A stretch of 64,000 nucleotides of DNA from Escherichia coli. GTDB taxonomy: Bacteria; Pseudomonadota; Gammaproteobacteria; Enterobacterales; Enterobacteriaceae. The notes under the pieces were generated by a model. That model did no database searches. It worked only from the letters and a program-made list of their open reading frames with translations, and was not told the DNA's origin. The first letter of the stretch is position 1. The number at the start of each line of letters is the position of its first letter. Positions 22,787 through 29,899 of this stretch are shown piece by piece. The stretch is from NCBI RefSeq assembly GCF_044647545.1, contig NZ_CP172818.1; one strand, given 5' to 3'. The translations under genes were made by a program, and so were the position numbers.

Positions 22787-23935
22787 ATGAAAGCATTACA
22801 TTTTGGCGCAGGTAATATCGGTCGTGGCTTTATCGGTAAACTGCTGGCAGACGCGGGTATCCAACTGACGTTTGCCGATGTCAATCAGGTGGTACTTGAT
22901 GCCCTGAATGCCCGTCATAGCTATCAGGTTCATGTGGTTGGTGAAACCGAGCAGGTAGATACCGTTTCCGGCGTCAATGCTGTCAGCAGCATTGGTGATG
23001 ATGTCGTTGATCTGATTGCTCAGGTTGATTTAGTCACTACCGCCGTGGGCCCGGTTGTGCTGGAACGTATTGCCCCGGCAATCGCCAAAGGGCTGGTGAA
23101 ACGTAAAGAACAAGGTAATGAATCCCCGCTGAACATCATCGCTTGTGAAAACATGGTCCGCGGCACCACACAGCTGAAAGGACATGTGATGAACGCCCTG
23201 CCGGAAGATGCCAAAGCGTGGGTAGAAGAACACGTTGGCTTTGTTGATTCCGCCGTTGACCGCATCGTGCCGCCTTCGGCTTCTGCAACCAACGATCCGC
23301 TGGAAGTGACGGTAGAAACATTCAGCGAATGGATTGTTGATAAAACCCAGTTCAAAGGCGCGCTGCCGAACATCCCAGGCATGGAGTTAACCGACAACCT
23401 GATGGCATTTGTTGAGCGTAAACTCTTCACCCTGAATACAGGTCATGCTATAACCGCGTACCTCGGAAAACTGGCCGGTCATCAGACCATTCGTGATGCG
23501 ATTCTCGACGAGAAAATCCGCGCGGTGGTAAAAGGTGCGATGGAAGAAAGTGGTGCAGTATTGATCAAGCGCTACGGCTTTGACGCAGACAAACATGCGG
23601 CGTACATCCGGAAAATCCTCGGTCGTTTCGAGAACCCGTACCTGAAAGATGATGTAGAGCGCGTAGGCCGTCAGCCGCTGCGTAAACTGAGTGCTGGCGA
23701 CCGTCTAATCAAGCCACTGCTCGGAACGCTGGAATATGGTCTGCCACATAAAAACCTGATTGAAGGTATTGCCGCTGCAATGCACTTCCGCAGTGAAGAT
23801 GATCCGCAGGCTCAGGAACTGGCAGCACTGATCGCTGACAAAGGTCCGCAGGCGGCGCTGGCACAGATTTCCGGTCTTGATGCCAACAGCGAGGTTGTAT
23901 CCGAGGCGGTAACCGCTTATAAAGCAATGCAATAA
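22787..23935 (+). CDS. mtlD: Mannitol-1-phosphate 5-dehydrogenase
   Basis: 382-aa product from the ATG at 22787 ([20 protein letters not shown]...), Rossmann GxGxxG motif. Confidence 0.95.
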
Positions 23936-24522
23936 TGGTGGACCAGGCGCAGGATACCCTGCGCCCGAATAACAGATTGTCAGATATGCAGGCAACAATG
24001 GAACAAACCCAGGCCTTTGAAAACCGTGTGCTTGAGCGTCTGAATGCTGGCAAAACCGTGCGAAGCTTTCTGATCACCGCCGTCGAGCTTTTGACCGAGG
24101 CGGTAAATCTTCTGGTGCTTCAGGTATTCCGCAAAGACGATTACGCGGTGAAGTATGCTGTAGAACCGTTACTCGACGGCGATGGTCCGCTGGGCGATCT
24201 TTCTGTGCGTTTAAAACTCATTTACGGGTTGGGCGTCATTAACCGCCAGGAATACGAAGATGCGGAACTGCTGATGGCATTGCGTGAAGAGCTAAATCAC
24301 GACGGCAACGAGTACGCTTTTACCGACGACGAAATACTTGGACCCTTTGGTGAACTGCATTGCGTGGCGGCGTTACCACCGCCGCCACAGTTTGAACCTG
24401 CAGACTCCAGTTTGTATGCAATGCAAATTCAGCGTTACCAACAGGCTGTGCGATCAACAATGGTCCTTTCACTGACAGAGCTGATTTCCAAAATCAGCTT
24501 AAAAAAAGCCTTTCAAAAGTAA
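23935..24522 (+). CDS. mtlR: Mannitol operon repressor
   Basis: 195-aa ORF whose ATG overlaps the mtlD stop (TAATG); K-12 gene order. Confidence 0.9.
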   Translation: MVDQAQDTLRPNNRLSDMQATMEQTQAFENRVLERLNAGKTVRSFLITAVELLTEAVNLLVLQVFRKDDYAVKYAVEPLLDGDGPLGDLSVRLKLIYGLGVINRQEYEDAELLMALREELNHDGNEYAFTDDEILGPFGELHCVAALPPPPQFEPADSSLYAMQIQRYQQAVRSTMVLSLTELISKISLKKAFQK

Positions 24523-25024: not shown

Positions 25025-25387
25025 ATGAAAGAAGTCGAAAAAAACGAAATCAAACGTCTCAGCGATCGCCTGGACGCCATCCGTCACCAGCAGGCCGATC
25101 TGTCGCTGGTTGAAGCCGCAGACAAATATGCCGAACTGGAAAAAGAGAAAGCCACTCTGGAAGCAGAAATTGCTCGCCTGCGCGAAGTTCACAGCCAGAA
25201 ACTCAGCAAAGAAGCGCAGAAACTGATGAAGATGCCGTTCCAGCGTGCAATCACCAAAAAAGAGCAGGCTGATATGGGCAAACTGAAAAAAAGTGTTCGC
25301 GGACTGGTGGTTGTGCACCCAATGACCGCGCTGGGCCGTGAAATGGGCCTGCAAGAGATGACAGGGTTCTCAAAGACTGCGTTTTAA
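25025..25387 (+). CDS. yibL: DUF2810 family protein YibL
   Basis: 120-aa charged coiled-coil-rich ORF ([23 protein letters not shown]...). Confidence 0.85.
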
Positions 25388-25423
25388 GAACACAGTATCT
25401 ACAGGGTGATTCTGCACATTCCT

Positions 25424-25460
25424 ATAGGCCGAGTAAGGTGTTCACGCCGCATCCGGCAAG
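25424..25460. repeat. REP element
   Basis: ataggccgagtaaggtgttcacgccgcatccggcaag, matching the REP consensus (reverse orientation). Confidence 0.65.
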
Positions 25461-25544
25461 ATAAGGCGCTCTGGATCAACAACCTAAGGGCAATTCTCTG
25501 ATGAGGATTGCCCTTTTCTTTACCAGACATCTCCCTCCACCAAG

Positions 25545-25561
25545 AATTGGCCCTACCAATT
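25545..25561. promoter_or_regulatory. Putative LldR operator O1 (palindrome AATTGG-N5-CCAATT)
   Basis: aattggccctaccaatt, a perfect 6-bp inverted repeat about 200 bp upstream of lldP; GntR/FadR-type operator architecture. Confidence 0.6.
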
Positions 25562-25673
25562 CTTCGCTTATCTGACCTCTGGTTCACAATTCCCCAATTA
25601 AAACTCACATCAATGTTGCTAATGCATAACATTTAGTTAACTATCCATTGTCATTATCCCTACACAACACAAT

Positions 25674-25684
25674 TGGCAGTGCCA
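25674..25684. promoter_or_regulatory. Putative LldR operator O2 (TGGCA-N-TGCCA)
   Basis: tggcagtgcca palindrome about 80 bp upstream of the lldP start codon. Confidence 0.5.
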
Positions 25685-25759
25685 CTTTTACACAACGTGT
25701 GACAAGGAGATGAGCAACAGACTCATTACACTGCGTGTGTGGACTGCAGGAGACCTGCA

Positions 25760-27415
25760 ATGAATCTCTGGCAACAAAACTACGATCCCGCCGGGAATAT
25801 CTGGCTTTCCAGCCTGATAGCATCGCTTCCCATCCTGTTTTTCTTCTTTGCGCTGATTAAGCTCAAACTGAAAGGATACGTCGCCGCCTCATGGACGGTG
25901 GCAATCGCCCTTGCCGTGGCTTTGCTGTTCTATAAAATGCCGGTCGCTAACGCGCTGGCCTCGGTGGTTTATGGCTTCTTCTACGGGTTGTGGCCCATCG
26001 CGTGGATCATTATTGCGGCAGTGTTCGTCTATAAGATCTCGGTGAAAACCGGGCAGTTTGACATCATCCGCTCGTCTATTCTTTCGATAACCCCTGACCA
26101 GCGCCTGCAAATGCTGATCGTCGGTTTCTGTTTCGGCGCTTTCCTTGAAGGAGCCGCAGGCTTTGGCGCACCGGTAGCAATTACCGCCGCATTGCTGGTC
26201 GGTCTGGGCTTTAAACCACTCTACGCCGCCGGACTGTGCCTGATTGTTAACACCGCACCAGTGGCATTTGGCGCGATGGGTATTCCGATTCTGGTCGCCG
26301 GGCAGGTAACAGGCATCGACAGCTTTGAGATTGGTCAGATGGTGGGGCGTCAGCTGCCGTTTATGACCATTATCGTGCTGTTCTGGATCATGGCGATTAT
26401 GGACGGTTGGCGCGGTATCAAAGAGACGTGGCCTGCGGTCGTGGTTGCAGGTGGTTCGTTTGCCATTGCTCAATACCTCAGCTCTAACTTCATTGGGCCG
26501 GAACTGCCAGACATTATCTCTTCGCTGGTATCACTGCTCTGCCTGACGCTGTTCCTCAAACGCTGGCAACCAGTGCGCGTATTCCGCTTCGGTGACTTGG
26601 GGGCGTCACAGGTTGATATGACGCTGGCTCACACAGGTTACACGGCAGGTCAGGTGCTGCGCGCCTGGACACCGTTTCTGTTCCTGACCGCCACCGTAAC
26701 GCTGTGGAGTATCCCGCCGTTTAAAGCCCTGTTCGCTTCAGGCGGTGCGCTGTATGAGTGGGTGATCAACATTCCGGTGCCGTACCTCGATAAACTGGTT
26801 GCCCGTATGCCGCCAGTGGTCAGCGAAGCGACAGCGTATGCCGCCGTGTTTAAGTTTGACTGGTTCTCTGCCACCGGTACCGCCATTCTGTTTGCTGCCC
26901 TGCTCTCGATTGTCTGGCTGAAGATGAAACCATCTGACGCTATCAGCACCTTCGGCAGCACGCTGAAAGAACTGGCTCTGCCCATCTACTCCATCGGTAT
27001 GGTGCTGGCATTCGCCTTTATCTCGAACTATTCCGGTTTGTCATCAACACTGGCGCTGGCACTGGCGCACACCGGTCATGCATTCACCTTCTTCTCGCCG
27101 TTCCTCGGCTGGCTTGGTGTCTTCCTGACCGGATCGGATACCTCATCTAACGCCCTGTTCGCCGCCCTGCAAGCCACTGCAGCACAACAAATTGGCGTTT
27201 CTGACCTGTTGCTGGTTGCTGCCAACACCACCGGTGGTGTCACCGGCAAAATGATCTCTCCGCAATCTATCGCTATCGCCTGTGCGGCGGTAGGCCTGGT
27301 GGGCAAAGAGTCTGATTTGTTCCGCTTTACTGTCAAACACAGCCTGATCTTCACCTGTATGGTGGGCGTGATCACCACGCTTCAGGCCTATGTCTTAACG
27401 TGGATGATTCCTTAA
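25760..27415 (+). CDS. lldP: L-lactate permease
   Basis: 551-aa product from the ATG at 25760 ([30 protein letters not shown]...), multi-TM lactate permease family. Confidence 0.95.
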
Positions 27416-28191
27416 TGATTGTTTTACCCAGACGCCTGTCAGACGAGGTTGCCGATCGTGTGCGGGCGCTGATTGATGAAAAAAACCTGGAAGCGGGCAT
27501 GAAGTTGCCCGCTGAACGTCAACTGGCGATGCAACTCGGCGTGTCGAGAAATTCACTGCGCGAGGCGCTGGCGAAACTGGTAAGCGAAGGTGTGCTGCTC
27601 AGTCGACGTGGCGGCGGGACGTTTATTCGCTGGCGTCATGACACATGGTCGGAGCAAAACATCGTCCAGCCGCTGAAAACGCTGATGGCCGATGATCCGG
27701 ATTACAGTTTCGATATTCTGGAAGCCCGCTACGCCATTGAAGCCAGCACCGCGTGGCATGCGGCAATGCGCGCCACACCAGGCGAAAAAGAGAAAATTCA
27801 GCTTTGCTTTGAAGCAACGCTAAGTGAAGACCCGGATCTCGCCTCACAAGCGGACGTTCGTTTTCATCTGGCGATTGCCGAAGCCTCACATAACATCGTG
27901 CTGCTGCAAACCATGCGCGGTTTCTTCGATGTCCTGCAATCCTCCGTGAAGCATAGCCGCCAGCGGATGTATCTGGTACCCCCGGTTTTTTCACAGCTGA
28001 CCGAACAACATCAGGCAGTCATTGACGCCATTTTTGCCGGTGATGCTGACGGGGCGCGTAAAGCAATGATGGCGCACCTTAGCTTTGTTCACACTACCAT
28101 GAAACGATTCGATGAAGATCAAGCTCGCCATGCACGCATTACCCGCCTGCCTGGTGACCATAATGAGCATTCGAGGGAGAAAAACGCATGA
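27415..28191 (+). CDS. lldR: GntR-family transcriptional regulator of the L-lactate operon
   Basis: 258-aa product ([52 protein letters not shown]...), wHTH plus FCD domain. Confidence 0.95.
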
Positions 28192-29378
28192 TTATTTCCG
28201 CAGCCAGCGATTATCGCGCCGCAGCACAACGCATTCTGCCGCCGTTCCTGTTCCACTATATGGATGGGGGGGCATATTCTGAATACACGCTGCGCCGCAA
28301 CGTGGAAGATTTGTCAGAAGTGGCGCTGCGCCAGCGTATTCTGAAAAACATGTCTGACTTAAGCCTGGAAACGACGCTGTTTAATGAGAAATTGTCGATG
28401 CCGGTGGCGCTAGGTCCGGTAGGTTTGTGTGGCATGTATGCGCGACGCGGCGAAGTTCAGGCTGCCAAAGCAGCGGATGCGCATGGCATTCCGTTTACTC
28501 TCTCGACGGTTTCCGTTTGCCCGATTGAAGAAGTGGCTCCGGCTATCAAACGTCCGATGTGGTTCCAGCTTTATGTGCTGCGCGATCGCGGCTTTATGCG
28601 TAACGCACTGGAGCGAGCAAAAGCAGCGGGTTGTTCGACACTGGTTTTCACCGTGGATATGCCGACACCGGGCGCACGTTACCGTGATGCGCATTCTGGG
28701 ATGAGCGGCCCAAATGCGGCAATGCGCCGCTACTTGCAGGCGGTGACGCATCCGCAATGGGCGTGGGATGTGGGCCTGAACGGTCGTCCGCATGATTTAG
28801 GTAATATCTCGGCTTACCTCGGCAAACCGACCGGACTGGAAGATTACATCGGCTGGCTGGGGAATAACTTCGATCCGTCCATCTCATGGAAAGACCTTGA
28901 GTGGATCCGCGATTTCTGGGATGGCCCGATGGTGATCAAAGGGATCCTCGACCCAGAAGATGCGCGCGATGCAGTACGCTTTGGTGCTGATGGAATTGTG
29001 GTTTCTAACCACGGTGGCCGCCAGCTGGACGGTGTGCTCTCTTCTGCCCGTGCACTGCCTGCTATTGCAGATGCGGTGAAAGGTGATATCGCCATTCTGG
29101 CGGATAGCGGAATACGTAACGGGCTTGATGTCGTGCGTATGATTGCGCTCGGTGCCGACACCGTACTGCTGGGTCGTGCTTTCCTGTATGCGCTGGCAAC
29201 AGCGGGCCAGGCGGGTGTAGCTAACCTGCTAAATCTGATCGAAAAAGAGATGAAAGTGGCAATGACGCTGACTGGCGCGAAATCGATTAGCGAAATTACG
29301 CAAGATTCGCTGGTGCAAGAGCTGAGTAAAGCGCCGGCGGCGGCGCTGGCTCCAATGGCGAAAGGGAATGCAGCTTAA
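28188..29378 (+). CDS. lldD: FMN-dependent L-lactate dehydrogenase
   Basis: 396-aa ORF ([29 protein letters not shown]...), alpha-hydroxy acid oxidase family; overlaps lldR by 4 bp. Confidence 0.95.
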
Positions 29379-29425: not shown

Positions 29426-29899
29426 ATGCTAAACATCGTACTTTACGAACCAGAAATTCCGCCAAATACTGGCAACATCATCCGTCTTTGCGCTAATACC
29501 GGCTTTCGTCTGCATCTCATCGAACCGATGGGATTTGCCTGGGACGATAAGCGCCTGCGCCGCGCGGGGCTGGACTATCACGAGTTTACCGCCGTTACGC
29601 GTCATCATGACTATCGCGCGTTCCTTGAAGCAGAAAATCCCCAGCGCCTGTTTGCCCTCACCACGAAAGGTACGCCTGCTCACAGCGCCGTAAGCTATCA
29701 GGATGGCGATTATCTGATGTTCGGCCCGGAAACACGCGGCCTGCCAGCGAGCATTCTTGATGCCCTGCCCGCTGAACAAAAAATTCGCATTCCAATGGTG
29801 CCGGACAGCCGCAGCATGAACCTGTCCAATGCGGTGTCGGTCGTGGTGTATGAAGCCTGGCGGCAGCTGGGATATCCGGGAGCGGTGTTGAGAGATTAG
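29426..29899 (+). CDS. trmL: tRNA (cytidine/uridine-2'-O)-methyltransferase, SpoU family
   Basis: 157-aa ORF ([27 protein letters not shown]...), SPOUT motifs. Confidence 0.9.

Follow-up and report, generated by a model that had tools for sequence, protein, structure and literature searches.

What do the two palindromes between yibL and the L-lactate permease gene lldP do, and is the distance between them held for a reason? They lie in a stretch of Escherichia coli DNA of 64 kb that was analysed as a whole (the window). The first-pass annotation had proposed that both are operators of LldR, the regulator encoded in the same operon, and that their spacing would allow looping. The genes, the spacer and the two boxes are laid out as follows.

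23935-24522: mtlR, mannitol operon regulator of the MltR family (NCBIfam equivalog model)
25025-25387: yibL, YibL family ribosome-associated protein (NCBIfam equivalog model)
25388-25759: yibL-lldP spacer, ending before the lldP ATG at 25760
25486-25515, plus strand: intrinsic terminator of yibL, a 13-pair stem and then TTCTTT
25545-25561: predicted LldR operator O1, AATTGGCCCTACCAATT, a high-affinity site that is also the site of activation, in reports a PdhR box too
25671-25687: predicted LldR operator O2, AATTGGCAGTGCCACTT, placed at about +22 to +38, within the transcribed leader, and containing the core TGGCAGTGCCA (25674-25684)
25760-27415, plus strand: lldP, L-lactate permease, first gene of the operon (NCBIfam equivalog NF007740, 1199 bits, full length)
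27415-28191, plus strand: lldR, FadR-subfamily GntR regulator (NCBIfam equivalog NF007741, 498 bits)
28188-29378, plus strand: lldD, FMN-dependent L-lactate dehydrogenase, last gene of the operon (NCBIfam NF033901, 823 bits)
29426-29899: trmL, tRNA methyltransferase (NCBIfam equivalog model)

The gene order around lldP-lldR-lldD is the same as in E. coli K-12, and the operon is intact downstream of both boxes, with lldR encoded 1.7 kb downstream of them. The LldR of the window has the Pfam GntR (winged-helix) and FCD domains and is identical to K-12 LldR at 255 of 258 residues (99%), residues 1-120, including the DNA-binding domain, being unchanged. According to the NCBIfam scan, its closest paralogue is PdhR. 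On its upstream side, the lldP regulatory region is bounded by the yibL terminator. A REP-like element also follows yibL (25427-25467, plus strand); it weakly resembles the REP-derived Rfam family naRNA4 (RF02564), scoring 27 bits where the gathering threshold is 59.5.

Both strings picked out by the first-pass annotation are exactly where it had placed them. The first, aattggccctaccaatt, fills 25545-25561 and is a perfect inverted repeat with 6-nt arms around a 5-nt centre; in this strain the palindrome can be extended to 9-nt arms (AAGAATTGG/CCAATTCTT) at 25542-25564. The second, tggcagtgcca, fills 25674-25684 and is likewise perfect, with 5-nt arms around a single central G. It is part of a 17-bp box that is 76% identical to the O1 box as a direct repeat. 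O1 and O2 start at -215 and -89 from the lldP ATG, as in K-12, and the repeat finder gave a start-to-start spacing of 126 bp, within 4 bp of the "about 130 bp" first proposed and equal to 12.0 helical turns at 10.5 bp per turn.

Both boxes match the skeleton AANTGGNNNNNCCANTT exactly, and the LldR box of Anzai et al. 2023 reads AAnTGGTCnGACCAnTT, with the core TGG-N5-CCA. O1 and O2 are the only exact matches to the skeleton in the 64 kb on both strands, where 0.09 were expected from shuffles, and 1 of 100 shuffles gave at least two such matches. When one mismatch was allowed, the box pattern had two extra matches (2536 and 50485), which is chance level for the 64-kb window. Operators of the FadR subfamily have been described as A/T-rich palindromes with TKGT/ACMA half-sites and 3 nt between GT and AC (PMC4494728). 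Set against this pattern, O1 reads TGGC-CCT-ACCA, in which the right half fits ACMA and the left half has C instead of T, while O2 reads TGGC-AGT-GCCA, in which the innermost position deviates in both halves. The spacing and the TGG/CCA fit in both boxes.

Binding of LldR to these sequences has been published. In the study of Anzai et al. 2023 the strongest LldR genomic SELEX peak lies upstream of lldP (62.9), and Table 1 gives the two LldR boxes of the lldP promoter as AAtTGGcCctACCAaTT (12/14) and AAgTGGcactgCCAaTT (10/14), the latter being the reverse complement of 25671-25687. The same study (PMC10272880) confirmed LldR binding by gel shift, reported that lactate induction requires lldR, and stated that its boxes are in the same places as the two sites mapped by Aguilera et al. 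2008 (J Bacteriol 190:2997). Furthermore, AATTGGCCCTACCAATT was quoted as the LldR binding sequence by San Martin et al. 2013 (PMC3582500). The spacer of the window differs from that of K-12 MG1655 at 13 positions (substitutions or indels) in 375 alignment columns; none of these falls in either box, and O1 and O2 together are identical at 34 of 34 positions. As the boxes are identical to those of K-12, the published LldR function was transferred to this strain. Judged by this identity, the two palindromes are almost certainly the lldPRD operators O1 and O2, to which the LldR encoded by the operon itself binds as dimers. The pair is an already known, characterised element, unchanged here in another Escherichia strain. 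The proposal that these are LldR operators is thus borne out by sequences identical to the published boxes (PMC10272880), and the outcome once named as fatal to it, a failure of LldR to bind in vitro, is answered by published binding on identical DNA.

The position of the pair relative to the promoter depends on the transcription start, around which we placed the following features.

25562-25670, plus strand: inter-operator segment of 109 bp, carrying the lldPRD core promoter (109 bp in 51 and 108 bp in 7 sequences of a 58-sequence alignment)
25616-25644, plus strand: possible weak sigma-70 core promoter, found by eye, with TTGCTA (25616-25621), a 17-nt spacer and AACTAT (25639-25644)
25627-25641, minus strand: ArcA-box-like sequence GTTAACTAAATGTTA (plus strand TAACATTTAGTTAAC), overlapping the -10 area
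25650, plus strand: putative lldPRD transcription start, 110 nt upstream of the ATG

Aguilera and colleagues (2008) reportedly placed the lldPRD start 110 nt upstream of the ATG, O1 at -105 to -89 and O2 at +22 to +38. With +1 at 25650, these operator positions map exactly onto 25545-25561 and 25671-25687, which we take as a check of internal consistency. With the start at this position, O2 would lie in the transcribed leader and not upstream of the promoter. The first-pass description of two palindromes upstream of lldP stands in that both are in the spacer, with the refinement that O2 belongs to the leader.

The -35/-10 pair was chosen by eye from the start at 25650 and is given with low confidence. 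A sigma-70 consensus scan returned no promoter-like site in the region on either strand, in keeping with a promoter that depends on an activator. Across genera, both GTTGC and the -10 area are conserved, and two of the 13 spacer differences fall in the presumed hexamers, which read TTGCTA/AACTAT here and TTGCCA/AACCAT in K-12. The ArcA box has the consensus GTTAATTAAATGTTA, from which GTTAACTAAATGTTA deviates by one mismatch; it is the only such match in the 64 kb, and the TAACATTTAGTTAAC block is the third most conserved of the region across genera. Two sources state that ArcA represses lldPRD and that an ArcA operator lies between O1 and O2 (PMC3798270, PMC8689689). On sequence grounds, the candidate box at 25627-25641 is likely to be the site of this anaerobic repression.

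Several other elements of the region were considered. A TTCAC(A) block at 25584-25588, about 62-66 nt upstream of the putative start, is nearly invariant across genera. It was rejected as a CRP site: inspection by eye found no TGTGA partner at the 6-nt spacing, and the left half is unconserved. A structured leader RNA was rejected as well, the fold of +1 to +126 being no better than shuffled sequence (z = -0.79). An upstream open reading frame of 17 codons (25710-25763, plus strand) has a TGA stop that overlaps the lldP ATG (ATGA), and AAGGAG abuts its own ATG; 4 of its 17 residues differ from K-12. Translational coupling to lldP was considered, but the frame was discarded as a conserved coding element, being found only in Escherichia and sporadically elsewhere and absent in most genera. 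Five of the 13 spacer differences from K-12 fall within 15 nt of the leader (25733-25747), just upstream of the lldP ribosome-binding site, and this stretch is variable among E. coli strains too.

How the pair works has been described for lldPRD. According to PMC3424551 and PMC5412874, the LldR sites flank the transcription start, repression needs both of them, and activation needs the upstream site together with LldR-lactate. The operator-mutation data are attributed to Aguilera 2008 in PMC3424551 and PMC8689689. Further, looping repression by LldR is said to depend on both sites and on their angular orientation in PMC8689689, and the inducer is reported not to free LldR from DNA in PMC5412874. 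In such a mechanism, LldR would occupy both sites when lactate is absent, and the dimers, 126 bp (about 12 turns) apart and on the same face of the DNA, would interact. Their contact would loop out the core promoter and so repress it. L- or D-lactate would release the loop, and LldR at O1, centred near -97, would then activate transcription. ArcA would repress anaerobically through the box over the -10 area, and PdhR binding of O1 might be a further reported input. The looping idea of the first-pass annotation is the same as this published model. To our knowledge, however, the physical loop (contact between the dimers at the two sites) and an LldR tetramer have so far only been proposed.

We compared the arrangement of the boxes across genera. 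The query was a degenerate DNA pattern encoding the N-terminus of LldP (MNLWQQNYD), so that the operators were not presupposed, and it returned 59 loci from a one-genome-per-species collection. They covered Escherichia, Salmonella, Citrobacter, Klebsiella, Raoultella, Enterobacter, Kosakonia, Pluralibacter, Trabulsiella, Yokenella and Superficieibacter, plus one Vibrio. K-12 and the window brought the set to 61 sequences, from which the Vibrio and Kosakonia quasisacchari (upstream sequence too short for box 1) were removed, leaving 59. The excluded Vibrio xiamenensis locus shares the LldP N-terminus pattern, and no LldR-type boxes were found upstream of it (best match 6/10). Contigs labelled "uncultured Oscillospiraceae MAG" (L003; locus 96.9% identical to the window) and "Chryseobacterium sp. 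18061" (L059) carried typical enterobacterial lldP promoters, and both records are probably contaminated or mislabelled.

TGG-N5-CCA was kept in both boxes in all 59 lldP upstream regions, which represent about 12 enterobacterial genera. The start-to-start distance between O1 and O2 was 126 bp in 51 of the 59 and 125 bp in the other 8, with no other value, although the 59 species are phylogenetically related and the constant spacing does not amount to 59 independent observations. The 1-bp change to 125 bp was tolerated in at least five lineages. In the 58-sequence alignment, the inter-operator segment had no insertions and only single-base deletions. Its length is fixed within 1 bp, whereas the neighbouring segments vary by 6 to 17 nt: the segment from O2 to the ATG, 72 nt here, was 70 to 76 nt long, and the one preceding O1, 50 nt here, was 37 to 54 nt long. 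Identity between the boxes drops to 0.58-0.63 in two stretches. As substitutions accumulate there, it is the length that is specifically held. A fixed spacing is the pattern that a phasing constraint would predict, and these alignments thus lend comparative support to the looping model.

The boxes stand out from their surroundings as well. O1 is the most conserved 17-mer of the upstream region, with a mean identity to the majority base of 0.96 against 0.76 overall in 58 enterobacterial sequences, and its ATTGG/CCAAT is invariant among them; the extension of the O1 palindrome to 9-nt arms is specific to Escherichia in the same alignment. The O2 area ranks second in conservation (58 sequences). 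On the other hand, the 5-1-5 palindrome TGGCAnTGCCA occurs only in 8 Escherichia-type sequences among the 59 compared. The O2 core reads TGGCAGGACCA, TGGCAGGGCCA or TGGCTGGGCCA in other genera, and TGGCAGTACCA in one E. coli strain. Since the "perfect" TGGCAGTGCCA palindrome is restricted to Escherichia, the functional register of O2 is TGG-N5-CCA, as in O1. The call made from the sequence at first pass was accurate, with the register and the position of box 2 now corrected.

Short palindromes are common, and one-mismatch matches to the box occur at chance level in the window, as would suit a view of the two repeats as functionless chance inverted repeats. This view has a negligible probability and is excluded. 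It is refuted by statistics (two exact matches where 0.09 were expected, both in the single spacer upstream of lldP and 126 bp from each other), by conservation (box cores invariant in about 12 genera while the flanking DNA has diverged) and by the published binding of LldR to identical DNA (PMC10272880). Of a different kind is the suggestion that O1 is mainly, or also, an operator of the pyruvate-sensing PdhR, which would be an overlapping function and not an exclusive alternative; we regard it as possible but rather doubtful. Among the PdhR boxes from genomic SELEX with PdhR is AATTGGccctACCAATT, located upstream of lldP (13/14), a site to which O1, and O1 only, is identical, and lldPRD mRNA rose 3.3-fold in a pdhR mutant (PMC7660256). 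PdhR is, moreover, the closest LldR paralogue, and it is named among the regulators of lldPRD (PMC10272880). Nevertheless, the LldR peak at this site is by far the strongest and lactate induction depends on lldR (PMC10272880), and the PdhR paper lists box 1 without box 2 (PMC7660256). Published evidence for PdhR control of lldPRD is conflicting. Aguilera and colleagues reportedly found in 2008 that a pdhR mutation was without effect on an lldP-lacZ fusion, which counts against a role of PdhR.

An additional use of O1, next to its function as an LldR operator, was raised by Rfam. The palindrome might also form an RNA hairpin of a minus-strand small RNA, the candidate STnc380, which seems very improbable. 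The model (RF02055) matched over its full length on the minus strand at 25477-25586 with a sub-threshold score (32.8 bits, E = 5e-4; 36.4 bits in K-12). Hairpin 1 of the model is the reverse complement of O1 and hairpin 2 is the yibL terminator, and the minus strand folds well as RNA (-45.2 kcal/mol, z = -5.8). However, both scores are far under the gathering threshold of 60, and a good RNA fold is automatic and strand-independent because of the two DNA palindromes. The consensus scan of both strands detected no promoter-like site for a minus-strand RNA. The inner arm pairs are invariant in all 58 species compared and thus show no covariation, and pairing in the outer stem (25542-25545 with 25561-25564) is lost in 21 to 48 of these species. 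No STnc380 match at E <= 0.01 was obtained in two Salmonella loci or in Citrobacter koseri, and a search of the literature collection for STnc380 returned nothing but the false match STnc3800. There is accordingly only a slim chance that O1 has two uses, as an LldR/PdhR operator on the DNA and as the hairpin at the 5' end of a small RNA that is transcribed divergently and ends at a bidirectional yibL terminator. If it were so, LldR bound at O1 would control an antisense or divergent transcript as well. The fixed operator spacing across genera is much more likely to be the new point at this locus than a two-use O1.

The operator pair sits in a region that varies among strains. The spacer is present in 5420 of 5426 complete E. 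coli genomes; within the spacer, the best of them is 97.2% identical to the window and most are 90-95% identical, while the yibL-lldD region (25025-29378) is 95.4% identical to K-12. This points either to an exceptionally variable yibL-lldD locus or to an origin of the window in a divergent lineage of Escherichia or Shigella. In about 10% of the genomes, coverage of the spacer query falls below 80% because an autotransporter gene lies upstream of lldP. In many E. coli strains, among them O157:H7, N32, CE0007a and Z1323HEC0355, this large YadA-like trimeric autotransporter gene (ehaG/upaG type) is directly upstream of lldP, and in Z1323HEC0355 it is a frameshifted pseudogene. The window and K-12 are without it, and yibL occupies that place in the window.

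The operators are textbook-level and experimentally mapped, and they carry little weight as a discovery; they are already in use for lactate biosensors, as stated in PMC8689689 and PMC5412874. The only new contribution is the cross-genus spacing of 126 (+/-1) bp, which we did not find stated in the literature examined. A fixed operator distance may guide the design of synthetic lactate promoters.

Among known systems, lldPRD of E. coli K-12 is the closest, with the same boxes, 126-bp spacing, ATG distances (-215 and -89), operon and regulator (99%), and it differs by the 13 spacer changes outside the boxes. Next come the E. coli PdhR boxes at the promoters of pdhR, ndh and cyoA (PMC7660256). 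PdhR is a FadR-type paralogue of LldR, and O1 matches the PdhR box at 13/14; however, O2 is unlisted there, and the inducer of PdhR is pyruvate whereas that of LldR is lactate. The arrangement also resembles lac O1-O3, gal OE-OI, araO2-I1 and deo, in which, too, one regulator binds on both sides of the core promoter, at two sites a near-integral number of turns apart. Unlike these looping systems, LldR belongs to the GntR/FadR family, its upstream site doubles as the activator site in the presence of inducer, the inducer is reported not to release the protein, and the physical loop is so far a proposal. Finally, LldR of Corynebacterium glutamicum and of Pseudomonas aeruginosa, and gonococcal GdhR at lctP, use FadR-type TNGT-N3-ACNA inverted repeats and, as with enterobacterial LldR, these are found close to where an operon for a lactate permease or dehydrogenase begins. 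In those three cases the literature describes a simple repressor whose site coincides with the transcription start or follows it closely, whereas enterobacterial LldR has another site far upstream and also acts as an activator.
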